DNA of 64,000 bases from Candidatus Daviesbacteria bacterium RIFCSPLOWO2_01_FULL_39_23 (GCA_001776935.1 MFDN01000001.1:101449-165448), one strand, 5' to 3'. Shown: positions 10,510 to 32,549, counted from the first letter of the stretch. Translations and numbers: made by a program. The notes: a model not told the origin generated them from the sequence alone.

Positions 10510-12255
10510 ATGAAGATGAAAAGATTATTTAAGAATGTGCAATCAATGGTGGATAAGAGAGGATTAATATTATCGCTTATTTTATTAGTGTCGTCATTTT
10601 TGAGAGTTTGGAGTCTTGATTTGGTTCCGGTATCATTATTTGGGGACGAGATTGATGTAGGCTATCATGCTTATTCAATTTTAAAAACAGGTAAAGATTA
10701 TTCGGGTAATTTTTTACCCATTCATTTTGAGTCATTAGCAGAGCACAGAACAGCTTTTTTCCCTTATTCTGCAGTACCAACTGTTGCATTATTTGGAATT
10801 TCGGCTTGGGGCGTAAGGCTTCCGGTTGCTATTTTTGGAGTACTGGGTATTTTGGCTTTTTATTTGTTGGTTAAAGAAATAACGAAAAATGAAAAATTAG
10901 GATTATTGGGAGCAGTTTTGCTTGGCATTTCCCCATGGCATATTCATTTTTCCCGGGTCGGTTTTGACGGACCGCAAATGCTTTTCCTATTCACAATAGG
11001 AATTTATTTTTTGCTAACCTCTTTGAGGGGTAAAAATACCCTATGGTTATCCGCAATCTTTCTTGCACTTACTCCGTGGGCTTATAACACGGCTAAATTA
11101 TTTCTTCCTTTAACGATTTTGGCAATTTTGATTATTTGGCGCAATGAACTGATGAAGATACCCCGAAGCCGATTGTTGACTGCCATAATAGTATTTACCA
11201 TAATTTCTCTACCATTTGCGCTTAGCACCCTTTTTGGCGGAGGTTCAGAGAGATTTCAGGGAATATCGATATTCAATGATCCAACCGTTGTACCTCAGAT
11301 GGGCTTTGACAGACAAAATGACTTAAAGGTAAGGGGTAGTAGTAGTTTCTTGCCTTCTATTGCTGATAAGCTATTTCATAATAAACTTACTGCATACTCA
11401 AAAATTTTTACCGATAATTATTTTCAATCTTTTTCTACCCAATTCTTTTTTATAAAAGGGGATGCTCTTAATCCCAGGCAATCTTCCGGTTTTGAGTTTT
11501 TTAAAATCCAATCTATCTTTATGATTGTGGGATTAGTTTTTTTAATAATTTCTCAATTAGATAAGAAGGTCAAAGTCTTTATAATCTTCTGGGTTCTGGC
11601 AGCGCCGATACCTTCTGCTTTGACACAAGGAGGAGGGGATCACGCTACAAGGTTAATTTTAATGCTGCCTGTCTTGGTTATTTTTATTACGTTTGGAATC
11701 TATTACATATATTTCAAAGTTAACAGAAAATTTAAAATCTTTTATATTCTTATTGTTTTAATAAGTTTACTATTAAGTTTTATTTTTTATCAGCATGATT
11801 ATTGGGTGCATTACCCTTGGAAGTCTGAAAGATGGTGGCATGCCGGATATAAAGAGGCAGTAACTTCAGCAGTAAGGAAAGGAGCCGATTACGAGCGGGT
11901 TATTATCAGTTCTGCGGATGAGCCATCGCTAATATTTTTCTTAGGTTGGTCTATGTATCCACCTGAGATTTTTCAATATGAATATAGTTCATATTTATCC
12001 AAAAACAAGAATGCTAATTCAACCTTAAATTTGGGCAAATATATATTCCCTCCCATAGGACAAGGGATAAATCTTTATGAAATGGGTTCAAAATTACCTG
12101 AAAATACTCTTTATCTGGCAACTGCAAAAGAGATTAATTTAAATCTAATTAAAGAACCGGGTAGGGTCCCGTCGGATATACTTTTGATTGATGCAATTTC
12201 ATATCCCTCAGGAGAACCTGCTTTTTACTTATTTGCCAAAAATGAGAAAAATTAA
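10510..12255 (+). CDS. PMT/ArnT-superfamily GT-C glycosyltransferase (PMT_2/GT39-like), paralog a
   Basis: 581 aa. It has the loop-1 motif LFGDEIDVGYHAYSILKTGKDYSG (a DE motif), SPWHIHFSRVGFDG, and a C-terminal soluble domain with W.HAGYKEAV. Confidence 0.65.
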   Translation: MKMKRLFKNVQSMVDKRGLILSLILLVSSFLRVWSLDLVPVSLFGDEIDVGYHAYSILKTGKDYSGNFLPIHFESLAEHRTAFFPYSAVPTVALFGISAWGVRLPVAIFGVLGILAFYLLVKEITKNEKLGLLGAVLLGISPWHIHFSRVGFDGPQMLFLFTIGIYFLLTSLRGKNTLWLSAIFLALTPWAYNTAKLFLPLTILAILIIWRNELMKIPRSRLLTAIIVFTIISLPFALSTLFGGGSERFQGISIFNDPTVVPQMGFDRQNDLKVRGSSSFLPSIADKLFHNKLTAYSKIFTDNYFQSFSTQFFFIKGDALNPRQSSGFEFFKIQSIFMIVGLVFLIISQLDKKVKVFIIFWVLAAPIPSALTQGGGDHATRLILMLPVLVIFITFGIYYIYFKVNRKFKIFYILIVLISLLLSFIFYQHDYWVHYPWKSERWWHAGYKEAVTSAVRKGADYERVIISSADEPSLIFFLGWSMYPPEIFQYEYSSYLSKNKNANSTLNLGKYIFPPIGQGINLYEMGSKLPENTLYLATAKEINLNLIKEPGRVPSDILLIDAISYPSGEPAFYLFAKNEKN

Positions 12256-13402
12256 ACAGTATTGTTTCATTATTTTTCTTCTTTCTGTTTTTTGGTTACT
12301 TGTAACATATATACAAAATGTCATATTTCCTGTTCGTTTTCTGCCGCATAACTTCTTCATTTTAGAATTATTAGACAAAAGAGTGGAATTGTTGCCTGGG
12401 TTGCTGTTGATGATGGGGGCGGGCAATATAATTCTATTATGGCTTATTAGCAAGCGATTTTTTTCTTCCCCTTACTATTTTCTCCCTTCGATAATTTATG
12501 CTTTATCACCATGGAGCAGCTATTTGATAGCTGCAGGATCTTTCTATATTTACTTATTATTTTTATTACTCATAATATTCTACGGGTTAATTCTGTTGAA
12601 ATCTGGATGCAGGTTTTGGGGAACAATATTAACAGCAGTCGTAACGGCAATAACTTTGTACAGTTCTTTTTTCCTATTTGTTATCCTACCTGTCTCTTTT
12701 ACAGGGATAGTGATTCTTAAGGTAATCTCTTTTAAAGAATTTAAAAACACAATTATCTTACTTATAATTTTAACCTTTCCTTTATTAATTTATATCTCTG
12801 GAAATTATCCGGGCTTAAGAAATATTTTTTTTAGTGAAATTAATGTAATTTCTGACCCCGGCCTTTTGAATGCTGTTAATAAATACCAAGGTGCTGCCAG
12901 AAGTAAGGGCTTAGGCGGCCTGGCTAAAATCTCAGAGAATAAGTACATATTTTTAACGGAATATCTCTTTTTAAAATATGCAAAGTCTTTTGTTCCTGCA
13001 ACCTACTTTACCCCTGCAGAAAAACTTTTAAATTTCTCATTCAGTCCCCCAATATATTTAGGTTTTCTGATACCCTTTTTATACGGTCTTTACAAATTCT
13101 TGAACCCTTCGATTTTAAGGAAGATATTATTGTTATCAACAGTACTTGTTATTCCTTCGGTATTGGCCAAACCCTTGGTTGATTTAAATCGCCTGGTTCT
13201 TTTTGCACCTGTTGTAATTTTTGTTATTTCTTATGGATATGTCAAAATGATTGAGCAAAAAGAGAAGACAAAATTCTTAATTCTATTGTCGATAGTTATC
13301 ATCGTATTTCAGTTGTTTGTTACCTTTTTTGATATTCAAGCAAGAGAAAGAGATAGGTTTGTAAAATACTTCGATCAAAATTATCAAATAGGTAAACAAT
13401 GA
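12242..13402 (+). CDS. Small polytopic membrane protein, a possible partner of the adjacent PMT-like genes
   Basis: Two TM bundles are separated by a soluble loop. The start is taken at the internal ATG (MRKIKQ), giving a 14-nt overlap with the upstream gene. The six-frame ORF track begins at 12188. Confidence 0.5.
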   Translation: MRKIKQYCFIIFLLSVFWLLVTYIQNVIFPVRFLPHNFFILELLDKRVELLPGLLLMMGAGNIILLWLISKRFFSSPYYFLPSIIYALSPWSSYLIAAGSFYIYLLFLLLIIFYGLILLKSGCRFWGTILTAVVTAITLYSSFFLFVILPVSFTGIVILKVISFKEFKNTIILLIILTFPLLIYISGNYPGLRNIFFSEINVISDPGLLNAVNKYQGAARSKGLGGLAKISENKYIFLTEYLFLKYAKSFVPATYFTPAEKLLNFSFSPPIYLGFLIPFLYGLYKFLNPSILRKILLLSTVLVIPSVLAKPLVDLNRLVLFAPVVIFVISYGYVKMIEQKEKTKFLILLSIVIIVFQLFVTFFDIQARERDRFVKYFDQNYQIGKQ

Positions 13403-15036
13403 ACAGATTAAAAATATTTAAAAATAAAATTCTTTTATTGATTGTTCTGTTCACACTTTTGGGTGGATTCTTCAGATTCTATATGAATACCGACAATCCG
13501 CCCAGTCTAAATATTGATGAGATATCTTATGGATATAGTGCTTATTCAATTTTAAAAACAGGTAAAGACGAAAACGGAATTTTTATGCCTTTGGTTTTTA
13601 AATCCATAGGAGATTATAAAAACCCTGTTTTAATTTATTCCCTTGTACCGTCCATTGCTATATTTGGACTGAATGAATTTGGAGTAAGGTTTACAACAGC
13701 TTTAGCAGGTACCTTATCCATTCCGGTTTTTTTTCTTCTTCTTAGGACTTTACTCAATAATACACGTATTGCCTTCATAGGCGGTATTTTGCTTTCAGTT
13801 TCTCCTTGGCATATTTATTATTCGCGCTACGCATCAGAGAGCCTTATAGCAACTTTTCTTTTAATGCTGGGAATTTGGTTTTTTTTGAAGATATTCGGGG
13901 GGGAAAAATGGTGGACGGTAGGTGCATCCCTAGCACTAACGTTATCGTTATACACATATCATTCCCATAGGTTATTCATTCCATTGTTTTTAATTTTTGT
14001 GATTTTTGCAAAAATTAAGCTTTTAAGGTCGGTAAAATCAAGCATGTATATATTTATAATTATGACTTTTCTACTAATCATCCCATTGATTATTCTAGTA
14101 ATAATTGGTCCGGCTAATACCAGAGCTAAAATGGTTTTTCTTTCTTTGGATATCGATTTTACAAGATATGTGATACTTGATCACCTGCACAAGCAGGGTG
14201 AGAATTTTCTCCTTTTATTTTTTTGGGTAAAGAGATATCTGAATTATTTCCAACCGGATTTCCTATTTTTTTCAGGATTGAATATGACATTGCCAGGTTC
14301 AATAGGTCTGGGGGTGTTATTCCTTTTTGAACTACCGTGGTTTGTTTTAGGAATTATCAAATTGATTAAAGATAAGATACCAGCCAAATTGATCATTGTT
14401 GCCTGGACTTTATTTGGACTCTTACCAGCTTCCCTTACAAATAATGAGCAGAGCACGGTTAGGAGTCTTTTGGTTCTGCCGGCTTTATTAACAGTTACGG
14501 CACTTGGTGCAGATTTTTTCATTCATTTGGTTTTCTCCATAAGAAACTTATATTTAAGAATTGGCACAATATTAACTTACTCAATTTTTATTGCAGTTTT
14601 GTTAATTCATGCGTTTTTGGTTTTTGTTGTGCATTTCCCCATACAAAGAGGAGAAGATTTTATGGAAGGCACAAAGCAGACAGTAGAGTATGCGCTTTCT
14701 CAAAAAAAGCAATATAAAGAAATCATTTTTGATCCTTACAGGGGAATAGAAGCTCCCTATATAGTGAGCATTCCTCATATGTACATTCTCTTCTATTCGC
14801 AATACGATCCTGCTATTTATCAACAAGAGCAAAAAACTCGGCCGGATGGTTCTTTTGGTTTTGATAATTTTACCGTTCGGAAAATTGATTGGAGGGTAGA
14901 CAAATCTAAAGAAAACACTTTATTTATAGGTAGCCCTTGGAGTTTACCGGAAAACGAACTAAGAGAGGGAGAAATATTGAAAAAGGTGTATCTTGTAAAC
15001 GGAGGCTTGGCATTTTTAATAGTATCCCCAAAGTGA
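13399..15036 (+). CDS. PMT/ArnT-superfamily GT-C glycosyltransferase, paralog b
   Basis: 545 aa. It contains LNIDEISYGYSAYSILKTGKDENG and SPWHIYYSRYASE. An ATGA overlap links it to the upstream gene. Confidence 0.65.
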   Translation: MNRLKIFKNKILLLIVLFTLLGGFFRFYMNTDNPPSLNIDEISYGYSAYSILKTGKDENGIFMPLVFKSIGDYKNPVLIYSLVPSIAIFGLNEFGVRFTTALAGTLSIPVFFLLLRTLLNNTRIAFIGGILLSVSPWHIYYSRYASESLIATFLLMLGIWFFLKIFGGEKWWTVGASLALTLSLYTYHSHRLFIPLFLIFVIFAKIKLLRSVKSSMYIFIIMTFLLIIPLIILVIIGPANTRAKMVFLSLDIDFTRYVILDHLHKQGENFLLLFFWVKRYLNYFQPDFLFFSGLNMTLPGSIGLGVLFLFELPWFVLGIIKLIKDKIPAKLIIVAWTLFGLLPASLTNNEQSTVRSLLVLPALLTVTALGADFFIHLVFSIRNLYLRIGTILTYSIFIAVLLIHAFLVFVVHFPIQRGEDFMEGTKQTVEYALSQKKQYKEIIFDPYRGIEAPYIVSIPHMYILFYSQYDPAIYQQEQKTRPDGSFGFDNFTVRKIDWRVDKSKENTLFIGSPWSLPENELREGEILKKVYLVNGGLAFLIVSPK

Positions 15037-15052
15037 TAAGATAGGATTATTC

Positions 15053-15952
15053 ATGAGTTTGAAGATATCAGTAGTAATTAATACTTTAAATAACGAAAAG
15101 GATATAAAACGCGCCTTGGAGAGCGTTAAGTGGGCTGATGAAGTAGTAGTATGTGATATGCATTCAGAGGATCAAACATCCGAGATTGTCAGGAAGATGG
15201 GCGTAAAGATGGTATTCCATAAGCGTCTAGAATATGTTGAACCAGCCAGAAATTTTGCTGTATCCAAAGCTTCCGGTGATTGGGTTTTAATAATAGATCC
15301 TGACGAGGAAGTCCAGGCTAGCTTAGCTGAGAAGCTAATGCAAGTTGCCAATAATATGAAACAAATAAGTTACCTAAGGCTGCCCCGAAAAAACATTATT
15401 TTTGGCAAATGGATGAAAGCATCTATGTGGTGGCCGGATTACAATATAAGGTTTTTTAAAAAAGGGGAAGTAGAATGGACAGATAAGATTCACAGGCAAC
15501 CTAAAGCAAGCGATGAAGGATTAGATTTGCCGGCGGATGAAAAATTTGCAATTATTCATTACCATTATGAGTCGGTATCGCAATATTTGGAAAGAATGTT
15601 TAGGTATACAGGTGTTCAGGCAGATGAATTGAAAAAAAGCGGATGTGTGTTTGATCCTAAAGATTTAATTAGAAAACCACTTGGTGAATTTTTGGGAAGA
15701 TTTTTTGCAAATAAGGGCTTTGAGGATGGTTTACATGGTTTATCTTTAAGTTTGCTTCAGGCATTTTCTGAATTTGTGGTGATTTTGCGCCTTTGGGAAT
15801 TGAGCGGATTTAAGTCACAGGAAATAGATTTAAGGCAATTAAAAGAGATAGGCAGGCAATCAGGAGAAGAAATCGACTATTGGTTTAAATATGGTAATCT
15901 TTCAAAAAATACTTTCAAAAGATTTTTCCAAAAGATTGGAAATAAGCTTTAA
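15053..15952 (+). CDS. Glycosyltransferase family 2
   Basis: GT-A N-terminus ISVVINTLNNEKDI...ADEVVVCDMHSEDQT and a DPDEE (DxD-like) motif. Confidence 0.6.
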   Translation: MSLKISVVINTLNNEKDIKRALESVKWADEVVVCDMHSEDQTSEIVRKMGVKMVFHKRLEYVEPARNFAVSKASGDWVLIIDPDEEVQASLAEKLMQVANNMKQISYLRLPRKNIIFGKWMKASMWWPDYNIRFFKKGEVEWTDKIHRQPKASDEGLDLPADEKFAIIHYHYESVSQYLERMFRYTGVQADELKKSGCVFDPKDLIRKPLGEFLGRFFANKGFEDGLHGLSLSLLQAFSEFVVILRLWELSGFKSQEIDLRQLKEIGRQSGEEIDYWFKYGNLSKNTFKRFFQKIGNKL

Positions 15953-15954
15953 AT

Positions 15955-16758
15955 ATGTTAACAGTTATTGTTATTACTAAAAACGAAGAAAGTAGAATTA
16001 AAGCCTGTTTGGAATCAGTGAAATTTGCTGATGAGATTATAGTTTGCGATAACGGATCAGAAGATAATACTATTCGTATTGCAGAAAAATATACAGATAA
16101 AATTTTCCAAACAAGGCTACAAGATTTTGCCGAAATAAGGAATTTTGCTACAGAGAAAGCTTCAGGGGAATGGATGCTCTTTGTAGATGCAGACGAAAGG
16201 GTTACGGAGGCTTTAAGGAGCGAAATAGAAACAATGATAAGCTTCTCAGATTTTTCCGCATATGCGCTATCCCGTAAAAATATTGTATTCGGGCAAGAAG
16301 TAAAATACGGGCCTTTTTGGCCGGATTGGGTTATAAGGGTTTTAAAAAGGACTGATTTTCAGATGTGGGTTGGCAAAGTTCATGAGATGCCTCATTTTAG
16401 TGGGAAATTAGGGTATAGCAAAAATTCCCTTTTGCACCTAACTCATAGAGGAGTAGATCAATTTATGAAAAAAGTACTGGATTGGTCTGCAATCGAAGCT
16501 CGATTGCGGTTGGATGCTAATCATCCCAAAATGACTAAATGGCGGTTCGTTAGGATTTTTATAACAGAGTTGCTTAATCAGGGATTCAAAAGGAGAGGTT
16601 TCTTTGGCGGTACAGTGGGGATAATAGATTCGTTCTTGCAGACTTTTCATTTATATATAACTTATGTCAGATTGTGGGAAATGCAGCAACCAAAGTCTCT
16701 TACCCAAACTTATGATGATTTAGATCAGCAATTAATAGATGATAATTTTAAGTACTGA
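15955..16758 (+). CDS. Glycosyltransferase family 2
   Basis: LTVIVITKNEESRIKACLESVKFADEIIVCDNGSEDNT and a VDADER motif. It is a paralog of the preceding gene. Confidence 0.6.
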   Translation: MLTVIVITKNEESRIKACLESVKFADEIIVCDNGSEDNTIRIAEKYTDKIFQTRLQDFAEIRNFATEKASGEWMLFVDADERVTEALRSEIETMISFSDFSAYALSRKNIVFGQEVKYGPFWPDWVIRVLKRTDFQMWVGKVHEMPHFSGKLGYSKNSLLHLTHRGVDQFMKKVLDWSAIEARLRLDANHPKMTKWRFVRIFITELLNQGFKRRGFFGGTVGIIDSFLQTFHLYITYVRLWEMQQPKSLTQTYDDLDQQLIDDNFKY

Positions 16759-16778
16759 TACTTTAAGGATTAAAAAAC

Positions 16779-17852
16779 GTGAAGATTGCACTTTATTCCC
16801 CATATTTAGATACTTTTGGAGGTGGAGAAAAATATATGATGACTATTTCGGAAATATTTTCCCAAGATAACGAAGTAGAGGTGCTATTGGATCAACACCT
16901 AGTTGAGACGGGGGCAGATTATTTAAAGGGTAAATTATCCAAAAGGTTTAATTTAAATTTGGGAAAAGTCAGATTTATAAGCGCTCCTGTTGGAAAGAAC
17001 TCTTCTTTTATTGCAAGACTGATTTTTCTTAAAAAATATGATGTATTATTTTATTTAACAGATGGAAGTATTTTTTTACCAACTTCAAAAACCAATATCT
17101 TGCATATTCAATCTCCCCTCAAAGGACAACCCTCTACAAGCATCTGGGGAAAAATTAAGCTTAAGGGCTGGAATACAATTATATATAATTCTGAGTTTAC
17201 CAGAAGGAATTCGGAAGGAAACTGGCCACACTCATCCGTGGTTGTTTATCCGCCGGTTGATACGGACAAAATAAAAGCTCTTCCCAAGAAAAATTATATA
17301 TTATCTGTGGGTAGATTTTTCGGATACTTAAAAGATAAAAAGCATGAGTTACTCATTAAGATATTTAGAAATCTGTATAAAGAAGGTAAGATAAAAAATT
17401 GGAGTCTTCACCTGGTAGGTTCTGCCGGCGAAGGAGATAAAAATTATCTTGATGAATTGAAAGCTTTAGCAGAAGATATGCCGGTAAAATTTTATCCGAA
17501 TTTAGGGTATGATGAATTAATAAGACTGTATGGAGAGTCTTCTGTTTATTGGCACGCAATGGGGTTTGAAGAATCGGATCCTACCAAAATGGAACATTTT
17601 GGGATTTCTACAGTAGAGGCTATGGCAGGCGGTTGCGTGCCAATTGTGATCAATAAAGGGGGACAAAGGGAAATAGTGGAGGATGGTAAATGCGGTTTTT
17701 TGTGGAATAACTTGGATGAATTTCAAGAGTTAACAACTAAAATTATCTTAAATAAGACATTAAGAGATGAATTTTCAAAACAAGCTGGTCAGAAAGCTAA
17801 AGTGTATTCAAAAAAAACATTTGAGGAAAAAATATTGAAGCTTTTAAAATGA
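16779..17852 (+). CDS. Glycosyltransferase family 4 (GT-B)
   Basis: C-terminal EHFGISTVEAMAGGCVPIV...GGQREIV, the GT4 E-x7-E region. Confidence 0.6.
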   Translation: MKIALYSPYLDTFGGGEKYMMTISEIFSQDNEVEVLLDQHLVETGADYLKGKLSKRFNLNLGKVRFISAPVGKNSSFIARLIFLKKYDVLFYLTDGSIFLPTSKTNILHIQSPLKGQPSTSIWGKIKLKGWNTIIYNSEFTRRNSEGNWPHSSVVVYPPVDTDKIKALPKKNYILSVGRFFGYLKDKKHELLIKIFRNLYKEGKIKNWSLHLVGSAGEGDKNYLDELKALAEDMPVKFYPNLGYDELIRLYGESSVYWHAMGFEESDPTKMEHFGISTVEAMAGGCVPIVINKGGQREIVEDGKCGFLWNNLDEFQELTTKIILNKTLRDEFSKQAGQKAKVYSKKTFEEKILKLLK

Positions 17853-19318
17853 AAATAATTAAAAATAGGTGGTTTAAGATTCTTATATTTATTTTTATTT
17901 TTGTTTTTACATTTATACTGCGTGCACATAATTATGAGAAAACTCCGGGCGCTCTTCATCTGGATGAAATGTTGTATGCCTGGTCAGGAATTTATTTAAT
18001 TGAAACCGGTGTGCCTGTTTCCTGGTCTACTCTGGACTATCCAAAAAGGGCGGAAGTTTTTAAAGGGATAATAAATTATAAAGGTGGGCAACCGGAGACT
18101 TCTGTAACTTTATATAAGCCTTGGTTGGATGAACCGCCGCTTTTTTCGCTGATAGTGGGATTTTTTGCTCATATTAACGGGGCAGCAAGAACAGATTTTA
18201 TCCCTTCTTCGTATATTCGAATTCCCAGCATTATTTTTGCAAGCCTTGTTTCAATATTTATTTTTTTAATCGCGAGAATGGTTAGCAATTTTTGGGGAGG
18301 AATATTGGCCATGCTTGTGTACGGAACGGTTCCCATAATGGTTATTGCTTCAAGAGTTGCTCTTCCGGAAAATCTTATCGCCTTAATTTTTGTAGTTATT
18401 GCTTATTTGTTGTTAAAGTTTTATCAGCATCCCCGCTTTATCTATATTTTGCCAATCCCCTTATTAATTGGAATTGCGGGTCTTTCAAAGCCTACCGGAT
18501 TTTTCTTGCTATTTTTGCCCATATATTTTGTTTTAAAAAAATTTGCAGAAATAGGCAAATTAAAAACATCTTTTAAATATGTATTGTATTTATTTTTATT
18601 TTGCCTTCCTTTTATAGGGGCATTTATCTTATACGGTATTTATTATGATGCGGATATTTTTTGGCAAATTACATCAATTCAGTCTTTTAGACCTGTCGGG
18701 TTCAAGAGTTTAGGATGGTTTTTTGTTTCTCCTTCATATGGTACATCAATACTTACTGATGGTTGGTATATTTTTTGTCTTCTTTCTGCAGCGTATTTTA
18801 TTTTTTCACCAAAAGAGGGTCTTAAAAGAATGATCAGTTTGTTTTTCATCTATTGGGTGGGGGTTGTGATGTTAACAGGAGGCGAAGGTGATATGTTGGC
18901 TTGGTATCGCTTTCCTGCATTTCCTTTTTTAGCAATTTTGGGGGGATGGGGTTTGCAAATATTAGTCACTAAGGCCAACCTTTTTACCTCATTTTTAGCA
19001 GTTGGTTTATTGTTAGGTAGCAGATCTTTGCTGGTAAATGCCTTCAGGTCAAATATTACTCCAATAGGATACAGGTTATTTTTAGGCTTATTTTTACTAC
19101 CTTCAATATTTAATTCCATTTTCGAAAAGCAATGGTTGTTAAAATTAAGCAAACTATTAACAGTAACAATAATCGGGATAGGAATATATTTTAATGTGGT
19201 CTATATTTATAATACTTTTGAATTGGAATGTGAAAGCAAATCTTGCCCGATTGTTCCTTCGACATTCCTTTCCACCTTGCATTTTCCGTTAATTTGGAGA
19301 TGGATAGTCTTAAAATAA
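17849..19318 (+). CDS. ArnT-like GT-C glycosyltransferase (GT83/GT39 superfamily), family C paralog 1
   Basis: 489 aa polytopic protein with LHLDEMLYAWSGIYLIETGVPVSW (DE loop motif) and WLDEPPLFSL (KPPL-like motif). ATGA overlap. Confidence 0.55.
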   Translation: MKIIKNRWFKILIFIFIFVFTFILRAHNYEKTPGALHLDEMLYAWSGIYLIETGVPVSWSTLDYPKRAEVFKGIINYKGGQPETSVTLYKPWLDEPPLFSLIVGFFAHINGAARTDFIPSSYIRIPSIIFASLVSIFIFLIARMVSNFWGGILAMLVYGTVPIMVIASRVALPENLIALIFVVIAYLLLKFYQHPRFIYILPIPLLIGIAGLSKPTGFFLLFLPIYFVLKKFAEIGKLKTSFKYVLYLFLFCLPFIGAFILYGIYYDADIFWQITSIQSFRPVGFKSLGWFFVSPSYGTSILTDGWYIFCLLSAAYFIFSPKEGLKRMISLFFIYWVGVVMLTGGEGDMLAWYRFPAFPFLAILGGWGLQILVTKANLFTSFLAVGLLLGSRSLLVNAFRSNITPIGYRLFLGLFLLPSIFNSIFEKQWLLKLSKLLTVTIIGIGIYFNVVYIYNTFELECESKSCPIVPSTFLSTLHFPLIWRWIVLK

Positions 19319-19331
19319 TCTTAGAAAATGT

Positions 19332-20997: not shown

Positions 20998-21030
20998 AAC
21001 CGCTCCGTTCTGCCTTTGGCGGGAGCAGGA
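20998..21030. terminator. Candidate bidirectional intrinsic terminator between convergent genes
   Basis: The 48-nt convergent gap contains a GC-rich imperfect inverted repeat, ccgctcc-N16-ggagcagg, in an otherwise AT-rich context. Confidence 0.3.
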
Positions 21031-21032
21031 GT

Positions 21033-22679: not shown

Positions 22680-23373
22680 AATTTTTTTTAATAACTGAAG
22701 CAGCTCCTAAGGCTATAACAATACTAATATAGGGGAATAAAAGAATCGGGCCTAATTTAAAGTAGGGAGAGATAAACCCAGTTATGATAATAGAAGCGAG
22801 CAAATACGCAGTTAAGGCCTTAATTTTTCCAAAGGATAATGCATGTATTAGTACACCTATTATAAAAAGGGGTAGCAGAAAGGGGGAGTATTTTTCAAAC
22901 TCATCAATACCTGATTTCTCTCTTGGATGGCTTGAAAAAAAATATAGATTTGGATCAACAGAATATGATATGTTTCTTAGGTATTTTCCGAGAGACATAC
23001 TCCAATTCTTATAGAAATTTTGAGACAGCTTATTGGTAAATAAGATTCCTAAACCGTCCGCATATACGCCATGTCTTTGTGTTTGTATTTTTTCATCAGT
23101 AGGACTTAGGGTCTTTAAGGTGTAGTCAAAATGATTTTTAATCAGTAGAGTAGATAATATAACAAACAGTACTCCCATTATGACCGATAATTTTAATCCA
23201 GAAAATACATTAAAAGAGGCAAAAAATAAGATAAAAGTAATGAGTATTAGCAGCAGTCCATACAAAAAATTTTCCTTTAAAATAAGTATCCACCAAAAGT
23301 TTGCAAAAGTAATTAATATAAAGACAATTAGCTTAAGATAATAAGAGTGCAGAGATGGGTTTGTCTTATTCAT
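22660..23373 (-). CDS. Small polytopic membrane protein, a possible partner of the PMT-like genes
   Basis: 237 aa: TM bundle, soluble loop of about 80 aa, then a second TM bundle. It is flanked by and overlaps PMT-like paralogs d and e. Confidence 0.5.
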   Translation of the reverse strand: MNKTNPSLHSYYLKLIVFILITFANFWWILILKENFLYGLLLILITFILFFASFNVFSGLKLSVIMGVLFVILSTLLIKNHFDYTLKTLSPTDEKIQTQRHGVYADGLGILFTNKLSQNFYKNWSMSLGKYLRNISYSVDPNLYFFSSHPREKSGIDEFEKYSPFLLPLFIIGVLIHALSFGKIKALTAYLLASIIITGFISPYFKLGPILLFPYISIVIALGAASVIKKNYVKKAL

Positions 23374-24988
23374 TAATCTCCATTATATATAAATAGAATG
23401 CAGGTGTTAAATTGGGCAAAGTAATTGTGTGAATTTTTTTAAGTTGCGACTGCGCAGGAGGAATATTAGATGCTGGTACTATATAAAGGATAGCTTCTGC
23501 TATGTTTTCTCTTTCCCACGAAATCTCCCTTATTTGGTATTTATCAAAGAAAGTCCCTTCTCTATTGCTTTTGCTTTCCAAAATTCTCTGAGGGTCAAGA
23601 TTTGTGTTATATGGGATATAAACACTTGGGAGCCCCGAATAGATATTTCCCGGGCCGAACCTTGGGTCAATTATTATTTGCTTAAATTCTTTATATTTTG
23701 GTTTGATAAAAAGCGCCATTTGTTTGTATCCATATTGAAATCCTTCTGCATGATCTTTCGGAAAATGATAATAAAAAACAGCCAAAAAAAATATAAATGA
23801 AACAGTTAAAACTATAATAAATATTATTTTCCAGATAATATTTACAGACCTCCAGAATATCAAAATTCCAATAGAGCATATGATAGAGATCGGGATAACT
23901 GTAATGAGATTTCTGGAGGTGCTTTGAGGACCAGTGGTTAAAGATGCAGTAATAGGAGTTGTTATTAAGAGAGTATAAATAAATTTAGTTTGCTCTTTAA
24001 ATAATAGTCTTGTCTTAATAATTCCAAAAATAAAAAAAGGAAGAAAAGGGAATAGAAAAACTCCTATTTGGAAAGGATCTCCTTGTGGAAGCAAATTATA
24101 GCCGGTGAAGAAAAGGTAGGAAAGGTTAAAATACAAAGAATATTTTTCCCAAATTGCCTGTAAAATAAATGCTAACTTTTGCCAAAAGAGAAAGCTAGGA
24201 TCTTCTAATTTCTTTGCCAGGTATGGTTCTTTTAAAATATTTTCAGTTCCGGCCCTTGTAGTATTTTGCAAATTATTGATTGAATCTAAGATAAGCGGAG
24301 TGATAAGGATTAAGAATAATATGATTCCCAAAAAGTAAAGTTTTCTATTGGTAATTTGCTTGCGGTTTAGGATTAAAAGCACTCCTATGATAAATGGTGT
24401 AAAAACCCACTCAGCGTGATATCCGTATAAAGATAGGGCAAAGGATATAAAGGTCAGTAAAATTATGACAACATTGTTTTTCTTCAAACTTAGAAAGAAT
24501 AGATAGATTCCTGAAGTGAAAAAGAATAGAGCTATATTGGCTTCGTAAGCCATCCTGGAGGCCAGTATATGTATGGGTGAGATAGAAAGAGCAAATGAGC
24601 TAAGCAGACTTAAGGATTTATTTTTGGTGAGCTCGAAAACTAATAAGCCCAAAATTAATATTGTTAAACTGCCAAGTAAAGCAGAAGGAGCTCTGGCTGC
24701 AAAGTCAGTATTACCAAAGATTGATATAGTCGGAATTGTTAAGTAGGCGGTTAGTGGAGCTTTGTATGTATTGTGGGACTGAAAAGACAGGGGCAGAAAA
24801 CGATTGTGTCCGTCTCTAAGAGTTTTAGATACAGAATATGCGTCATATGCAATAGATATTTCATCATTTGATAAATGAGGAGGAACTAAATTTAAATATA
24901 AAAACCGTGTGAGTATTGTTAAGCTTACAATAAGCATAATTAAGATTCTAAAGTCTAATTTAAAATCCATAGAAAATAATTTTTTCAT
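23366..24988 (-). CDS. PMT/ArnT-superfamily GT-C glycosyltransferase, paralog e
   Basis: HLSNDEISIAYDAYSVSKTLRDGHN, SPIHILASRMAYE, and C-terminal GFQYGYKQMALF. The start is placed at the ATG that makes an ATGA overlap with the upstream gene. The ORF track extends to 25027. Confidence 0.6.
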   Translation of the reverse strand: MKKLFSMDFKLDFRILIMLIVSLTILTRFLYLNLVPPHLSNDEISIAYDAYSVSKTLRDGHNRFLPLSFQSHNTYKAPLTAYLTIPTISIFGNTDFAARAPSALLGSLTILILGLLVFELTKNKSLSLLSSFALSISPIHILASRMAYEANIALFFFTSGIYLFFLSLKKNNVVIILLTFISFALSLYGYHAEWVFTPFIIGVLLILNRKQITNRKLYFLGIILFLILITPLILDSINNLQNTTRAGTENILKEPYLAKKLEDPSFLFWQKLAFILQAIWEKYSLYFNLSYLFFTGYNLLPQGDPFQIGVFLFPFLPFFIFGIIKTRLLFKEQTKFIYTLLITTPITASLTTGPQSTSRNLITVIPISIICSIGILIFWRSVNIIWKIIFIIVLTVSFIFFLAVFYYHFPKDHAEGFQYGYKQMALFIKPKYKEFKQIIIDPRFGPGNIYSGLPSVYIPYNTNLDPQRILESKSNREGTFFDKYQIREISWERENIAEAILYIVPASNIPPAQSQLKKIHTITLPNLTPAFYLYIMEINE

Positions 24989-25806
24989 ATCTTTGGGTTG
25001 ACTAGTAAGAAAAGTGTTAAAACCCAAAGAGAAAGATAGAAGGTTTTATTGATTTTTTGTAGCCCTAAAATAATTAGGAAAAGGAAAATTGGCGAAAGCA
25101 AATAAAGGGACTGAAATTTATCCGGCGATCTATCAATTCCCGCAGTAAAGAGAGTGACGAAAAATGCCATTAAACAAAAGTTCCTAAATACTTTTTCCTG
25201 TTTAAAAAGCAAACTAAAACCCATAAAAAGCGGATAGATATTTGCAATTAAAAGAACATCAGAAATATTTTTTAAATTCAAAAAATCAAAAAAATTTGTA
25301 AAAGCAGCGTAGATATAAACAAGCTTTGAATAAAGTAGTTGACGCATTTTGAATGGCAGGAATAGGGCATCTTCCGTGTGTCTTTTAATATGGTAATTGA
25401 TTTCCGGCGAATTAAAGATTAGTTGTGTATCTTGTAAGTTGAGAGGGTATTTTATAATTTCTCCTGAGTAAATATTCCCCACGAATAAAGAAATAGCGAA
25501 GAATATTAAGATCCATTTTTTTGGCCAACGTTTATATAAGATAAAAAAACTCAAAGAAATTAGTGGTAACAATGAGATGAGATTAATATAAGGTAAATAA
25601 TTAAAAAGCGGAATAAGGCTAAAAGAAATAATTATGAGGTAACTTAAATAATAACTTTTGTTTAAAAAGCTTTGAAAAAAATATATTGATAAGACAAGCA
25701 AGAATGAATTAGTTAAAGCAACTGATAAGCTGTGATGGGAGAACAAATTTAATATAAAAGCTAAGAGGAAACATAAAGTTGTAGAAAGTATAAATTTAAA
25801 TTTCAT
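24985..25806 (-). CDS. Small polytopic membrane protein, a possible partner of the PMT-like genes
   Basis: 273 aa with two hydrophobic bundles separated by a soluble loop. Confidence 0.5.
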   Translation of the reverse strand: MKFKFILSTTLCFLLAFILNLFSHHSLSVALTNSFLLVLSIYFFQSFLNKSYYLSYLIIISFSLIPLFNYLPYINLISLLPLISLSFFILYKRWPKKWILIFFAISLFVGNIYSGEIIKYPLNLQDTQLIFNSPEINYHIKRHTEDALFLPFKMRQLLYSKLVYIYAAFTNFFDFLNLKNISDVLLIANIYPLFMGFSLLFKQEKVFRNFCLMAFFVTLFTAGIDRSPDKFQSLYLLSPIFLFLIILGLQKINKTFYLSLWVLTLFLLVNPKI

Positions 25807-25832
25807 AAAATACTATCATAAACTAACTCAAC

Positions 25833-27389
25833 TTAAAAACTGGAAAGGCTTAAAGCAGGCAAGTTCCCCCAGTGTGCTACAAGGTATGGTAAAAATAAGT
25901 TATTATAGATAATACTTTTATAGATAAGATAGGCTAGGAAAATAAACCAGATAAATCTAACAAATTTATATTTTCCAAAGAAAAATCTTGCCAGTAAAAA
26001 TGAGGTAAATATCAGAAAGATCCATCTGTAGTGCACGATGCTTGGTTTAAGACCTAATGCAATACGTCCCCAGTAATAGCTGCTTGAGAAGGCAATAAAA
26101 AAGAATGCATAAGCAGTGGCTATTTTTGGAGTTTCGTATATTTGCCAAATCGCTATTGCAGCAGTGCCTGCTAAAAAGGGCACTAACGAAATTAGATACC
26201 AAGGATAATTTTCACTTCCTATGAGCATGATCAGCAGATAGTGTGTAAAAAGAGGGAGAAGTAAATAAAGAAGATTCCTGCTTTTAATATTGAGGGATAC
26301 AATAACAAAAGAGAGTAAACCCCAAACCCACCATCCATCTACAGGAAAATTTTTAAACTTAAGTGCTTCAAGCATAGTGATTGGCTTTAGAGCGCCAAAG
26401 TAACCGCGGGTAGCATTCGCATTGAGGATATCTAAAAAGATATCTTTTTGAAGCCATAAACCCCAAGCAAAATATAAAAGCATTGGAATTGATGCAGAAA
26501 GAAGAAAAGCAAAAGTTATTTTTTTGGGAATTTTATTTATTATCAATAGAATCAAAGATCCGATTAAAAATCCTATTGCAGGTTCTTTAGCCAGAAAAGC
26601 CAATCCGCCAAATAAACCAGAAAATAAAATAATTGGTATTACCAGAGGCACCCTAGTTTGTTTTTGATATATTTTTATCCCTAAAAATAAGAGTATTAAA
26701 TGTATTAAGATAAAGGGAGGCTCGATATTTTCTAAAAATGCTGTTCTTGTGGCAAGCAGATAAGTTGGGACAGTAGAATAAACTATAACAGCCAAAGTTG
26801 CTACTTGAGGGTTTTGGGTAATGATATAAATAAAAATAAATAATAATGCCGCAGTAATAATAGCTATTGCTAGCGCAGGTTTTCTGAAAGCGTCAGGTTT
26901 GACTTGATCTGCTGTTTGAATACTTGAATTTTCTCCTAAACTGTAAATTAATCCTCCTAAAGGGGGATGATCAAAAAAAGGTGCTACAAAAAACATAAGT
27001 TCAGTACCTTTCATATAATCCATTTGTTCTTTTGCAAAAATCGGTCTGGCGTTTCGTTTAAACTCCTGTAAATTAATAAGGGTGTTTTCCGATTTCATAG
27101 CAAATCCCACTAAATTTCCGGCTCTGGGGTTATTTTTTTGACCTGTGTAAACATGTGAGATTGTAGTCCAGGCTACAGGTAGGCCGGTAGAACGCAAGCT
27201 AAGTCCTTGCCAGACATAATTAAATTCATCTGTGATCGGAGGAGGGATAGTTTCATACCCAAACCATCTATAAAAAGTGCTCTGCCATATGATAATGACA
27301 GAAATTAATATAGAAACTAAGAAAGGCAGTATTTGGAGGAGTTTATTATAGTTTAATTGAGCAAAAATAACTTTTATAGCTGAAGACAT
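25833..27389 (-). CDS. ArnT-like GT-C glycosyltransferase, family C paralog 2
   Basis: 518 aa. It contains ITDEFNYVWQGLSLRSTGLPVAW and FFDHPPLGGLIYSL, homologous to the 17849..19318 product. Confidence 0.55.
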   Translation of the reverse strand: MSSAIKVIFAQLNYNKLLQILPFLVSILISVIIIWQSTFYRWFGYETIPPPITDEFNYVWQGLSLRSTGLPVAWTTISHVYTGQKNNPRAGNLVGFAMKSENTLINLQEFKRNARPIFAKEQMDYMKGTELMFFVAPFFDHPPLGGLIYSLGENSSIQTADQVKPDAFRKPALAIAIITAALLFIFIYIITQNPQVATLAVIVYSTVPTYLLATRTAFLENIEPPFILIHLILLFLGIKIYQKQTRVPLVIPIILFSGLFGGLAFLAKEPAIGFLIGSLILLIINKIPKKITFAFLLSASIPMLLYFAWGLWLQKDIFLDILNANATRGYFGALKPITMLEALKFKNFPVDGWWVWGLLSFVIVSLNIKSRNLLYLLLPLFTHYLLIMLIGSENYPWYLISLVPFLAGTAAIAIWQIYETPKIATAYAFFFIAFSSSYYWGRIALGLKPSIVHYRWIFLIFTSFLLARFFFGKYKFVRFIWFIFLAYLIYKSIIYNNLFLPYLVAHWGNLPALSLSSF

Positions 27390-27420
27390 TTGAATTCATT
27401 ATGACAGGGAGAAAATTCAG

Positions 27421-29064
27421 TTGCAATATTGTAATCATGTTATGATTAAGTTTGAGAATATGCATTTTTTAATATCAAAATTAAAACAAACAAAGTATTT
27501 ATTAGTTTTAATATTGATATTTGCTTTTGCTATAAGAGTCTATAATCTTGCAGAGGTTCCGCCATCTTTGAGCTGGGATGAGGCTTCTATTGGTTATGAT
27601 GCCTGGTCAATTGTGCAGGATGGTAAAGATCAGTGGGGAGAACGCTTACCGTTAATATTCCGATCTTTCGGGGAGTATAAGTTCCCTTTTCATATTTATA
27701 CAACCGCTGTGTTTGTGAGTATTTTGGGATTATCGGAATATGCGGTGCGGCTGCCTTCTGCTTTGTTTGGCGTGGTTAATATATTTTTGATTTTTTTCTT
27801 TGCAAGAAACCTTACGGGAAGTGTCTATATCGGTCTATTGTCCTCATTATTTTTGGCTATCTCTCCGTGGCATATTCAATTTTCCAGGGTCAATTGGGAA
27901 ACTAACTTTGCATTATTTTTCTTCTTTTTGGGCAATTTAGCTTTTCTAAAAGTTGTGAAAAGAGAAAGAGGAAAAATATTGATTCCAATTTCTTATTTTC
28001 TTTTTGGCTTGACCACCTATTCTTATAATGCTGCAAAAGTCTTTGTCCCCTTTTATCTGCTATTTTTGACAATAATTTATTTTAAACGTCTAATCAGATA
28101 CAAAGCGATGTTTATTCTTGGAATAGGCGGCTTCCTGTTAATTATTTTTTTAACTTTATTAAATCCTAAATTATCAGGTACTGTCAGGTTTCAGCAGGTG
28201 GATTTTCCTAATGATTGGATAATTTCAACCGCCACATACAAACTCACAAATAACAGGATATTCTCCAGAGGGGAACTTTTTATCAGGCAGTACTATTCCC
28301 ATTTTTCGCCTAAATTTTTACTTTTATCCGGAGATGAAAATTCCAGACATTCCTCTCAAGTTATGGGACAAGCATATATATTTGATGTTTTGTTTATTAT
28401 TATCGGTTTATTTATTTTATCCAGAAGAAGAACAAAAGAAGATTTAGTGTTATTAGTATGGTTTTTTATGGCTTTTATACCTGCTTCGATAGCCAAAGAG
28501 GCTCCGCATGCTTCAAGAGCGATGTTTGCTTTAGGAAGCTTTCATATTGTTTCTGCAACTGGACTTTCTCACTTTTTTTCGCATTTCAGAAACAATATAC
28601 AAAAAAAAGCCTTTATTTTTTTTGCTGCATTATTTATCACTGTGCTTTTTGGCAGATATTTCTATTTGTATTTAACAAGCTATCCAGTCGGGTATTCTCA
28701 GGATTGGCAGTACGGCTATAAGCAAATTTTCACAAAATATAAAGACGAATTTCAAAAATATGATAATATTTTTATTTCGGACGCATATGCCCAGCCGTAT
28801 ATTTTTGCTCTTTTTTACTTAAAATATGATCCAAAGAAATTCAGGGCAGAAGCTGTGCGCAACAGCATGGATCAATGGGGATTTTCAACAGTTAAAACCT
28901 TTGATAAATTTATTTTCGGAAAAGTAAAAGATGCAGAGGCTGTAAAAGGCATAAGTTTAATCTTTGCTTCGCCTTCCGAGTATCTGGCAAAAACTCCTTC
29001 TAAAGATGTAATATTGAATTTGGACGCAAGCCCAGCTTTTTATGTTTATGAATACGCAAAATAA
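27421..29064 (+). CDS. PMT/ArnT-superfamily GT-C glycosyltransferase, paralog f
   Basis: LSWDEASIGYDAWSIVQDGKDQWG, SPWHIQFSRVNWE, and C-terminal SQDWQYGYKQIF. The true start may be an internal ATG. Confidence 0.65.
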   Translation: MQYCNHVMIKFENMHFLISKLKQTKYLLVLILIFAFAIRVYNLAEVPPSLSWDEASIGYDAWSIVQDGKDQWGERLPLIFRSFGEYKFPFHIYTTAVFVSILGLSEYAVRLPSALFGVVNIFLIFFFARNLTGSVYIGLLSSLFLAISPWHIQFSRVNWETNFALFFFFLGNLAFLKVVKRERGKILIPISYFLFGLTTYSYNAAKVFVPFYLLFLTIIYFKRLIRYKAMFILGIGGFLLIIFLTLLNPKLSGTVRFQQVDFPNDWIISTATYKLTNNRIFSRGELFIRQYYSHFSPKFLLLSGDENSRHSSQVMGQAYIFDVLFIIIGLFILSRRRTKEDLVLLVWFFMAFIPASIAKEAPHASRAMFALGSFHIVSATGLSHFFSHFRNNIQKKAFIFFAALFITVLFGRYFYLYLTSYPVGYSQDWQYGYKQIFTKYKDEFQKYDNIFISDAYAQPYIFALFYLKYDPKKFRAEAVRNSMDQWGFSTVKTFDKFIFGKVKDAEAVKGISLIFASPSEYLAKTPSKDVILNLDASPAFYVYEYAK

Positions 29065-30688
29065 GATTAAAATAGTTATTCTGATTTTAATTATATTTCT
29101 TGCAGCTTCCTTGCGCCTTTATAAATTGGATCAAATCCCCCCTTCTTTAAATTGGGATGAAACTGCCGGGGCTTATAATGCTTATGTAATTGCAAACTGG
29201 GCAAGGGACGAATGGGGCCAGTTTCTTCCTTTAATCTTTACCTCTTTTAGGGATGACAAGCACCCTGTGCATGTATACATCACTGCAGTGGTTGTGAAAA
29301 TCTTCGGATTATCAGACTTTACCGCCAGGCTGTCGGGAGCGCTGGTTGGGATATTTTCCGTGCTGGTAATTTATTATTTGGCTGGCATTTTTTTTAAAAA
29401 TAGCTTGGCAGCGTTATTTTCCGCCTTTTTTTTGGCTGTATCTCCTTATCACCTGCAATTTTCAAGGGGGTTATGGGAAGTTAATTTTGCTCTTTTTTTC
29501 TTTTTGCTGGGTCTTTTGATGTTTTATTTAGGAATAAAAAAGAAAGCCCGGCTTATTAATATTTCTTTTTTCAGCTTTGGACTTAGCCTATTGTCTTATC
29601 ATTCGTCAAAAGTAGTTGTTCCTATGATGGTGCTTTTGCTGGTTGTTTTGTATTTTAAGGATCTTAGAAAACTTTCATTAAATTTTTACACAGGCATATT
29701 TATTTTCCTTATTTTTATTACTTTATTATTTATCGATCCGCGCCTGGTAGGATTTGCCAGGGCAAAGCAAACACAATTCGGCCAGGATGTTATTGAAAAG
29801 ACTCGAATATATCAAAAAACAAAAAATTCCACACTTGGACTGGCAGAAATTGCATTAAATCAGTATATAACTCATTTTTCTCTAAACTATTTATTTCTTT
29901 ACGGCGATCAAAGTCCGCGAAATTCTGTTAAAACAAGTGGGGAATTCTATAAATCAGATGGCTTATTTTTTATTGCCGGTCTTTTGTACCTAATAAAATT
30001 AAGATCAAGAGTTAGTCTGGTCTTACTTTTTTGGTTGCTGCTGGCACCAATACCATCCAGCTTGGTAGGCGGAGCTCCCAGCGCTACAAGAGCAATTTTT
30101 ATGGCGGGAAGCATGCATCTTTTGGCGGGGGCAGGCGCAGCAGGCATTGCCGGATTGCTGGGTAAAAAACTTAAGGTTTTTGTCGTGATTTTAATTCTTC
30201 TTTTTGTGAGCGTACAGGCTTATTTTTTTCTTGGCTACTATTTTAATGCCTATCCCAAAAAAGACCCTCATGAGTGGCAATACGGGATGAAGCAAATTGT
30301 AGAATTTGTTAAAGAACACGAGGAATATGACTATATCTTTATGACTGATATACGTTCTCAGCCGTATATATTTTTTCTATATTATTTAAAACACCCTCTA
30401 CCTGAATATTTAAACAGTGTGGTGTACAATAATAGTGAAGAGAGTGTAAAATATAATACTGTTTCCTATTTTGGCGGGTATTACTTGGGAAAAGAGGGGG
30501 AGGAAAGAAGGATTAATGTCTATTTTGGAGGTTGGGATCCGATTGAAAGCACTCCTGATAAAGGAAGGCTTTATGTAGTCAGTCCAAGCCAGTATGATGG
30601 GCTTAAGCACAGGTCAAGTTTTGATGTTAAAAAGATAATTTATTATCCTGACGGAGGAAAAGCTTTTTATATCGTAAGCGCAACTTGA
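29042..30688 (+). CDS. PMT/ArnT-superfamily GT-C glycosyltransferase, paralog g
   Basis: LNWDETAGAYNAYVIANWARDEWG, SPYHLQFSRGLWE, and C-terminal HEWQYGMKQIV. It overlaps paralog f by about 20 nt. Confidence 0.65.
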   Translation: MFMNTQNKIKIVILILIIFLAASLRLYKLDQIPPSLNWDETAGAYNAYVIANWARDEWGQFLPLIFTSFRDDKHPVHVYITAVVVKIFGLSDFTARLSGALVGIFSVLVIYYLAGIFFKNSLAALFSAFFLAVSPYHLQFSRGLWEVNFALFFFLLGLLMFYLGIKKKARLINISFFSFGLSLLSYHSSKVVVPMMVLLLVVLYFKDLRKLSLNFYTGIFIFLIFITLLFIDPRLVGFARAKQTQFGQDVIEKTRIYQKTKNSTLGLAEIALNQYITHFSLNYLFLYGDQSPRNSVKTSGEFYKSDGLFFIAGLLYLIKLRSRVSLVLLFWLLLAPIPSSLVGGAPSATRAIFMAGSMHLLAGAGAAGIAGLLGKKLKVFVVILILLFVSVQAYFFLGYYFNAYPKKDPHEWQYGMKQIVEFVKEHEEYDYIFMTDIRSQPYIFFLYYLKHPLPEYLNSVVYNNSEESVKYNTVSYFGGYYLGKEGEERRINVYFGGWDPIESTPDKGRLYVVSPSQYDGLKHRSSFDVKKIIYYPDGGKAFYIVSAT

Positions 30689-32547: not shown

Positions 32548-32549
32548 TA

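Follow-up and report, generated by a model that had tools for sequence, protein, structure and literature searches.

An old, maintained array of GT-C glycosyltransferase paralogs and truncated relatives in a glycan gene island of a Daviesbacteria genome

The described membrane glycosyltransferases closest to the genes considered here include the PMTs (GT39), which have about 11 transmembrane (TM) helices and act as dimers; ArnT (GT83), which has 13 TM helices; and the oligosaccharyltransferases (OSTs; STT3, PglB, and AglB of GT66), which carry WWDYG after the last helix and DxD in the second external loop. In Pmt1, residues R64, E78, and R138, which flank or lie within the loop holding an Asp-Glu (DE) pair, are known to be needed. 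The Candidate Phyla Radiation (CPR) comprises a large share of bacterial diversity and is mostly uncultured, and the make-up and assembly of its cell surfaces are little known; to our knowledge, the usual description of these bacteria is that they have no outer membrane. Here, we analyze a 64-kb stretch of Candidatus Daviesbacteria bacterium RIFCSPLOWO2_01_FULL_39_23 (Microgenomates, CPR), hereafter the window, in which 19 open reading frames (ORFs) of more than 230 aa lie between positions 10510 and 30688. Seven of these (a to g) are intact, full-length homologous ORFs of 545 to 581 aa, and their family belongs to the GT-C superfamily and to Pfam PMT_2/PMT. Three others (m404, m237, and m273) are truncated members of the same family, so that 10 of the 19 genes in the 20 kb are family-derived, and two more (x1 and x2) are distant GT-Cs. 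We put at about 0.6 the probability that the seven are active outward-facing GT-C glycosyltransferases that invert, use polyprenyl-phosphate donors, have separate specificities, and jointly build or decorate one surface glycoconjugate. The full-length copies are as follows.

a: 10510..12255, plus strand; 581 aa; DE at residues 46-47, SPWHI, WWHAGYKE; family hidden Markov model (HMM) score 726, C-terminal domain present
b: 13399..15036, plus strand; 545 aa; DE at residues 40-41, SPWHI, C-terminal block DFMEGTKQ; family HMM score 515
c: 19332..20984, plus strand; 550 aa; copy used for the structure model; codons of D34-E35 at 19431-19436, of SPWH at 19716-19727, and of W424-Q-Y-G427 at 20601-20612 (plus strand)
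d: 21033..22679, minus strand; 548 aa; DE, SPWAI, degenerate C-terminal block; family HMM score 436
e: 23366..25027, minus strand; 553 aa from a TTG; DE, SPIHI, GFQYGYKQ; family HMM score 456
f: 27421..29064, plus strand; 547 aa from a TTG; DE, SPWHI, DWQYGYKQ; family HMM score 556
g: 29042..30688, plus strand; 548 aa; DE, SPYHL, EWQYGMKQ; 23-nt overlap with the end of f

For e, the ATG at 24988 is a more likely start than the TTG and overlaps the m273 stop codon in an ATGA; for f, ATG codons at 27442 or 27460 are possible alternatives to its TTG. A protein of Candidatus Daviesbacteria bacterium RIFCSPHIGHO2_01_FULL_40 matches a with 100% identity, as ACD_32C00111G0003 from an uncultured bacterium matches c. 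Pairwise identity among a to g is 25 to 38% over the full length (BLASTP E of 1e-23 to 1e-109), and similarity at the DNA level is limited to short blastn patches of 23 to 191 nt, which rules out recent duplication or gene conversion. The blocks of sequence that the copies share sit within this whole-length homology and therefore are not compositional artifacts, and whole-length homology combined with patchy DNA similarity indicates that the copies are old. An initial annotation of the window had described seven PMT/ArnT-like paralogs in 20 kb, well diverged at the DNA level and split between both strands, and in these respects it was accurate, with a, b, c, f, and g on the plus strand and d and e on the minus strand. 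Its closer pairs, b/c and f/g, are only partly borne out: f and g are the closest (38%) and c is the best match of b (33%), but c and f follow closely (37%). Among the full-length copies, d diverges most. The count of seven likewise holds for full-length copies, but the annotation had overlooked the three truncated members.

Three motif blocks had been proposed to unite the seven proteins, and each stands in a narrower form. The DE pair is invariant in all seven, but the preceding Trp of the proposed loop motif occurs only in c, f, and g. In the second block, SP and R137 (numbering of copy c throughout) are invariant, but SPWHI itself is limited to a, b, c, and f; d has SPWAI, with Ala in place of His, e has SPIHI, and g has SPYHL, and the SR that follows is TR in c. 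The C-terminal block reads DWQYGYKQ in c and f, EWQYGMKQ in g, GFQYGYKQ in e, and WWHAGYKE in a, and a profile of the domain that contains it matches all seven copies, but the motif is only partly kept in b (DFMEGTKQ) and is degenerate in d (SFGYPYLE). One genome of each GTDB species was scanned with a pattern, giving more than 586 relatives, and the best-scoring 80 loci were kept; titled loci among them come from Davies-, Woese-, Levy-, Roizman-, Gottesman-, Shapiro-, Chisholm-, and Blackburnbacteria, and in the collections searched the subfamily is seen in Microgenomates-type CPR bacteria. Conservation was counted over 342 family members from loci of this best-scoring set (79 loci for the DE count).

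D34-E35: 334/335 aligned members
D51: 335/336 aligned members
R359: 342/342 aligned members
R137: 332/338 aligned members
R20: 327/334 aligned members
R91: 329/336 aligned members
R235: 329/336 aligned members
SPWH, exact: 143/342 members
WQYG, exact: 141/342 members

The second and third blocks are thus subfamily signatures, and the Asp/Glu/Arg set is the family invariant. Many metagenome-assembled genome records titled 'uncultured Gammaproteobacteria bacterium isolate binchicken...' (L007, L008, L010, L012, L015-L017, and many others) carry a Microgenomates-type locus with 50 to 71% protein identity; the Gammaproteobacteria names are probably placeholders or errors.

The AlphaFold2 model of copy c (71 sequences) has a predicted local distance difference test score (pLDDT) of 92.4, a predicted template modeling score of 0.91, and about 11 membrane helices. 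The N-terminus is predicted to be cytoplasmic and to lead through TM1 into a long first external loop (EL1), within which the invariant DE pair is placed outside the membrane by helix parity and the positive-inside rule, in agreement with the GT-C fold and loop position that the initial annotation had anticipated. Lys and Arg make up 27.5% of the predicted cytoplasmic loops versus 7.4% of the external loops, consistently in all seven copies, and this bias therefore places EL1, the SPWH loop, Y180, EL4, EL5, and the C-terminal domain on the outer face, where a group of invariant Arg, Glu, and Tyr residues is found. EL4, a helical stretch of about 80 residues in the model, carries R235, HNK, and FSPxFLF, and EL5 carries R359. 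We take the seven ORFs to be of the GT-C_A class, a name adopted from the literature rather than assigned by any tool used here. As modeled, the fold is equidistant from OST, PMT, and ArnT and is not specifically PMT/ArnT-like, and it is the sequence motifs, not the fold, that weakly favor PMT/ArnT over the OSTs.

The PMT/ArnT-like label has the support of Pfam profiles above their curated gathering cut-offs. PMT_2 (PF13231, 26.1 bits) is exceeded by all seven copies, from 26.5 bits in d to 47.3 in g (E of 2.9e-8 for a, 5.5e-10 for b, 8.5e-6 for d, 4.1e-12 for e, 6e-12 for f, and 3.5e-12 for g). PMT (PF02366, 22.7 bits) is exceeded by six of the seven (a 27.7, b 40.3, c 36.6, d 27.0, e 31.1, and f 29.6 bits; E of 2.5e-6 for a, 3.5e-10 for b, and 4e-6 for d), and g falls below it at 18.4 bits. 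NCBIfam TIGR03663 (Agl23, cut-off 126 bits) reaches only 44.3 bits in a and 37.5 in g, over the N-terminal half, and does not match c or d. Relatives already carry the NCBI label 'glycosyltransferase family 39 protein'. The PMT matches raise the possibility that these are strict PMT-type protein O-glycosyltransferases, each adding mannose or another sugar to Ser/Thr of different secreted or surface proteins, such as S-layer proteins or pilins, after the model of the fungal PMT1, PMT2, and PMT4 subfamilies. Several features fit: the helix number is that of PMTs; multiple diverged paralogs per genome occur in both; and the dimeric working units of PMTs would accommodate the conserved neighboring genes as partners in heteromeric pairs. 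The LRFY...PPSLNWDE piece of the family also aligns on Pmt4 RFYKIW-YPKEVVFDEVHFG, with the DE region falling weakly on the Pmt4 FDEVHFG motif, so that R20 (in the R-F-Y before DE) and D34-E35 would correspond to R..FDEV of Pmt4, and R91, at the start of TM2, to R142. On the other side, none of the seven copies matches Pfam MIR or PMT_4TMC at E ≤ 0.01, and they are therefore not eukaryote-type PMTs; they have their own C-terminal domain, are only 16% identical to PMTs, are equally close in structure to ArnT and the OSTs, and lie among genes for GT2 and GT4 enzymes, a Wzx flippase, and nucleotide-sugar metabolism, as in polysaccharide loci, with no candidate target protein encoded in the window. 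We think this explanation unlikely. ArnT is the best match of the seven-copy profile among PDB sequences (5ezm, E 4e-8, across TM2-TM7), and it resembles the family in length, in having an outer soluble domain after the last helix, and in the polyprenyl-monophosphate donor expected. In contrast to ArnT, however, the family has about 11 helices rather than 13, a C-terminal domain without detectable similarity, and seven copies rather than one, and no lipid A pathway gene was seen in the window; on helix number, C-terminal domain, and context, the proteins are therefore not ArnT.

The C-terminal domain is predicted to be a small alpha/beta domain of about 130 residues that lies outside, directly after the last TM helix, and it reaches a pLDDT of 91.4 when modeled alone. 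Its opening loop and helix start are formed by the W-x-x-G-x-K block, placing what the initial annotation had called a conserved soluble block within an extracytoplasmic domain. Structural matches to the domain model are only weak, and none is to ArnT. The domain profile finds 3434 clusters at 50% identity among 1.84 billion representatives, invariably C-terminal in proteins of about 530 to 590 aa or in fragments, and the domain therefore marks one coherent subfamily and has not been shuffled into other architectures. In the OSTs, as here, an aromatic-Gly motif comes right after the last helix and leads into a soluble domain, and W-Q-Y-G could be read as the counterpart of WWDYG in an OST-like enzyme that transfers a preassembled oligosaccharide from a polyprenyl-diphosphate carrier, for which the Wzx-type flippase encoded in the window would be suitable. 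However, Pfam STT3 matches none of the seven copies; an OST-type DxD was not found in the second external loop in the family alignment, where SPWH..SR..E stands instead; W-Q-Y-G is exact in well under half of the members counted above and degenerate in b and d; and the C-terminal domain is much smaller than that of the OSTs. A search of all PDB sequences with the domain profile at E ≤ 10 gave two chance matches only, none significant and no OST among them, and the equation of WQYG with WWDYG at the sequence level was rejected on this result. With no STT3 match, DxD, or WWDYG match, the proteins are therefore not to be classed with the OSTs, and we regard an OST-like reaction as very improbable.

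The genome Gr01-1014_7, also from Microgenomates (locus L001), has the same gene order as the window: a (51% identical to the window counterpart), m404 (49%), b (48%), and GT2-GT2-GT4, followed by c (71%), e (68%, 526 aa), m273 (54%), an f-like copy (39%), and g (66%), and then GT2, GT4, PIG-V-like, and Wzx genes. Most copies thus have syntenic orthologs 48 to 71% identical across genera, compared with 25 to 38% between paralogs, and in a neighbor-joining tree every window paralog falls into a separate ortholog clade together with counterparts from Davies- and Woesebacteria, which bears out the earlier suggestion of an old, maintained expansion. The module of d and m237, x1, and x2 are absent from L001; d-type best matches (29 to 50%) occur in 13 other loci and are clearly closest to d in 9. 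By HMM, the number of family copies per locus ranges from 1 to 7 with a median of 4 (78 loci of about 21 kb), a tandem core of c, f, and g recurs, and seven copies are found in three other loci as well. Copy number in related genomes thus varies around a conserved core. This variation, together with the presence or absence of the d and m237 module, would suit ArnT/Gtr-type decorating enzymes that each add one side-branch sugar and are kept in multiple copies to vary the surface against phages or hosts instead of building a single structure, and the PMT_2 matches, the ArnT match in the PDB, and several GtrB/ArnC-like polyprenyl-phosphate sugar synthases in the window point in the same direction. 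The conservation of most copies in syntenic order across genera, however, is unlike that of fast-turnover variation genes; no GtrA-type small flippase was recognized, no signs of mobile elements were seen in the interval, and PADLOC gave no hits. We consider surface variation of this kind quite unlikely.

The paralogs do not differ evenly along their length. Identities by region, between paralogs and between orthologs (window versus L001), are as follows.

TM1 and EL1: paralogs 40%, orthologs 65%
TM2-TM7: paralogs 32%, orthologs 60%
EL4: paralogs 21%, orthologs 63%
TM8-TM11: paralogs 23%, orthologs 54%
C-terminal domain: paralogs 22%, orthologs 64%

Paralogs diverge most in EL4 and the C-terminal domain, yet between orthologs these two regions are no less conserved than the catalytic loop, a pattern as expected of specificity determinants. 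Divergence among paralogs and retention in orthologs therefore give indirect support to separate specificities, and we infer, as the initial annotation had suggested, that the paralogs differ in acceptor or sugar.

Three further genes in the interval, judged by their sequences, are truncated members of the same GT-C family.

m404: 12188..13402, plus strand; TM2-TM10 and SPW motif kept, without the DE loop or C-terminal domain
m237: 22660..23373, minus strand; 237 aa; EL4 plus TM8-TM10 only, without the DE loop or C-terminal domain
m273: 24985..25806, minus strand; 273 aa; about TM4-TM10, without the DE loop or C-terminal domain

The start of m404 is probably the ATG at 12242, giving 386 aa. 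It matches the family HMM with E 1e-15 over profile positions 97-407 (hmmsearch --max) and with 99.1% probability in hhalign (E 5e-19), and phmmer links it to full-length members in other loci with E down to 8e-11. By hhalign, m237 together with its orthologs matches family columns 259-385 (97.3%, E 2.4e-11), a stretch that takes in the N-x-x-x-x-x-(S/D)-P-x-(F/L)-x-F block of EL4, and m273 matches columns 146-375 (94.3%, E 1e-7). Six other polytopic proteins of the window, used as controls, gave P of at least 0.13 (m404), 0.10 (m237), and 0.09 (m273), ruling out a compositional artifact. Nor are m237 and m273 directly related to each other (hhalign probability 4.7%), each matching different or partly overlapping parts of the family. 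A Pfam scan made no assignment to the three except a weak sub-threshold TgpA_N for m273. Each truncated gene adjoins a full-length copy. The start of m404 overlaps the end of a, and its five relatives include those beside a-orthologs in L001 (49%) and L007. The end of m237 overlaps the start of d by 20 nt, and in nine other loci an m237 relative immediately precedes a full-length family copy, whose best window match is d in 8 of 9. The end of m273 overlaps e, and its orthologs lie directly upstream of e-type copies in L001, L007, L055, and L016. We propose a role for the three as non-catalytic partner subunits of a, d, and e, respectively. A bolder version, in which the array consists of heteromeric enzymes with the conserved and translationally coupled DE-less proteins as obligate GT-C pseudoenzyme subunits of a, d, and e, and the whole set works outside the cytoplasm as an assembly line for a surface glycoconjugate specific to Microgenomates, perhaps for host-cell attachment, is speculative, and on balance we doubt it. 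Other loci hold relatives of about 530 aa with EE in place of DE, without R359, and with a profile match that ends before the region of the C-terminal domain (L005 2954-4549, L006 5916-7511, L011 6639-8288, L013 3750-5342, and L022 2336-3928); these form another class of paralog, probably inactive and distinct from the truncated members in the window.

By analogy with PMT and ArnT, we infer that each full-length enzyme would move a sugar from a polyprenyl-phosphate carrier, with inversion, to an extracellular acceptor; in this scheme D34 would serve as the base, as in GT39 and GT83, and the conserved arginines would bind the phosphate. In the pathway we envisage, cytoplasmic GT2 and GT4 enzymes and the flippase would supply a lipid-linked precursor, three synthase-like GT2 enzymes would make polyprenyl-phosphate monosaccharides, and each outward GT-C paralog would attach its particular sugar, or form its particular linkage, on a surface acceptor, perhaps with truncated copies as non-catalytic partners. 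Since the duplications are old and each copy has kept its own EL4 and C-terminal domain, each most likely recognizes a different acceptor position or donor sugar, and the array most likely builds or decorates the Daviesbacteria cell surface. A similar logic, although not membership, is found in the mycobacterial EmbA/B/C, AftA-D, MptA/B, and PimE, where a genome holds many diverged GT-C paralogs, partly in tandem, and each forms one linkage outside the membrane from polyprenyl-phosphate sugars in the building of a complex wall glycan; a PpgS-like synthase is encoded in the window too; their C-terminal domains and phylum are different. The three-component Gtr and CsbB-YfhO systems likewise place a GT2 polyprenyl-phosphate sugar synthase near an outward GT-C transferase, but here no GtrA/GtcA-like flippase was recognized, the GT-C family is another one, and transferases far outnumber synthases. 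Several points weigh against our proposal of an active, jointly working set with partners: the Pmt4 alignments are individually nonsignificant (independent E of 41-420 for the R20 and DE pieces and 0.14 for R91), the neighbor-joining tree has no support values, m404 of the window was not reported by the default filters of HMMER in the larger search, and the partner idea draws only on conserved adjacency and overlapping gene ends.

Full-text literature on GT-C, GT39, and GT83 in CPR, Patescibacteria, and Microgenomates yielded no description of such arrays, an absence that is weak evidence; in that literature, the C-terminal domain peculiar to the family, the tandem arrays of ancient paralogs across Microgenomates, and the coupled truncated copies look undescribed. 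Multiple GT-C paralogs in a glycan island are unsurprising as such, but the locus shows that in the very small genomes of Microgenomates a large and conserved block is given over to one outward GT-C subfamily. That scale, and the conserved pairing of full-length copies with pseudo-paralogs, are entry points into the CPR cell surface, and the analysis offers as handles the family profile, the near-invariant R20, D34, E35, D51, R91, R137, R235, and R359, EL4 and the C-terminal domain as probable specificity regions, and three possible enzyme-pseudoenzyme pairs. If such pairing is real, the homo- and heterodimeric GT-C enzymes already known would be joined by complexes that include a pseudoenzyme.

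The family genes are organized with others in three runs: a-m404-b-GT2-GT2-GT4-x1-c (plus), x2-m273-e-m237-d (minus), and f-g-GT2-GT4-PIG-V-like GT-C-PpgS-like GT2 (plus). Gene ends overlap frequently in the interval. The neighbors are listed here, together with two further synthase-like genes.

x1: 17849..19318, plus strand; 489 aa; distant PMT_2 GT-C with DE, without the family C-terminal domain (PMT_2 E 1.1e-11)
x2: 25833..27389, minus strand; 518 aa; belongs with x1 to the distant PMT_2 clade; first loop with DE, without the family C-terminal domain (PMT_2 E 3.8e-7)
GT2, GT2, GT4: 15053..17852, plus strand; between b and x1; Pfam Glycos_transf_2 and Glycos_transf_1, cytoplasmic glycosyltransferases
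GT2, GT4, PIG-V-like GT-C, PpgS-like synthase: 30705..34396, plus strand; downstream of g, from Pfam
PpgS-like GT2 of the preceding entry: 33725-34396, plus strand; NCBIfam PpgS E 2.6e-35 over the full model length, below cut-off
AglJ/ArnC-like GT2: 36530-37264, plus strand; E 3e-28, below the curated cut-off
PgfS/GtrB-like GT2 with C-terminal TM helices: 60843-61853, minus strand; E 2e-63, below the curated cut-off

The two distant PMT_2 proteins, also overlooked in the initial annotation, are 26% identical to each other (BLASTP E 9e-16); x1 matches f weakly (E 0.001-0.003) and none of a to e or g significantly, and hhalign aligns it with the family at only 77%, in the N-terminal module. The PpgS-, AglJ/ArnC-, and PgfS/GtrB-like GT2s are candidate donor suppliers for the GT-C enzymes. 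The GT2, GT2, and GT4 genes between b and x1 have syntenic L001 orthologs at 54 to 66%. Soluble-looking GT2s at 15053-15952 and 15955-16758 (in tandem after b) and at 30705-31493 (after g), all on the plus strand, are paralogs of one another; the same arrangement occurs in L001, whose orthologs are only 29 to 34% identical to the other two GT2s of the window.

Almost all of the 64 kb encodes glycan-related functions, including the MOP/Wzx flippase and many predicted nucleotide-sugar-modifying enzymes read from translations. The window has about 31 to 40% G+C and no tRNA genes. Directly upstream of the array lies a second family of polytopic paralogs with a soluble C-terminal part (2889-6341, plus, 1150 aa; 6341-8347, plus, 668 aa; 8344-10443, minus, 699 aa), which are 31 to 42% identical and share a conserved DG-x-WHI...NP-x-x-AG-x-x-L-x-NYHF block. 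These three ORFs gave no Pfam, NCBIfam, PADLOC, or PDB-sequence match, and orthologs of 1162 and 672 aa occupy the same place in L001. Among genes for sugar epimerases, dehydratases, and oxidoreductases lie two paralogs of about 420 aa (39396-40649 and 45578-46858, both minus) that combine a Cys-rich N-terminal segment with a core resembling methyltransferases; from their sequences they look like NDP-hexose C-methyltransferases, which would point to an unusual branched or methylated sugar. G+C rises to 0.39-0.40 at 54000-58000, against 0.31-0.37 elsewhere, where UDP-glucose dehydrogenase-like and aminotransferase-like genes are found; the rise could reflect stronger conservation or a different origin. 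Further large polytopic proteins are encoded at 41143-42981 (plus), 57892-59967 (minus), and 28-1407 (plus, cut by the start of the window); two have sub-threshold PMT_2 matches (23.6 and 24.2 versus 26.1 bits) and one has no match. In all, some 17 membrane proteins that are GT-C-like or derived from GT-C may be encoded in the window.

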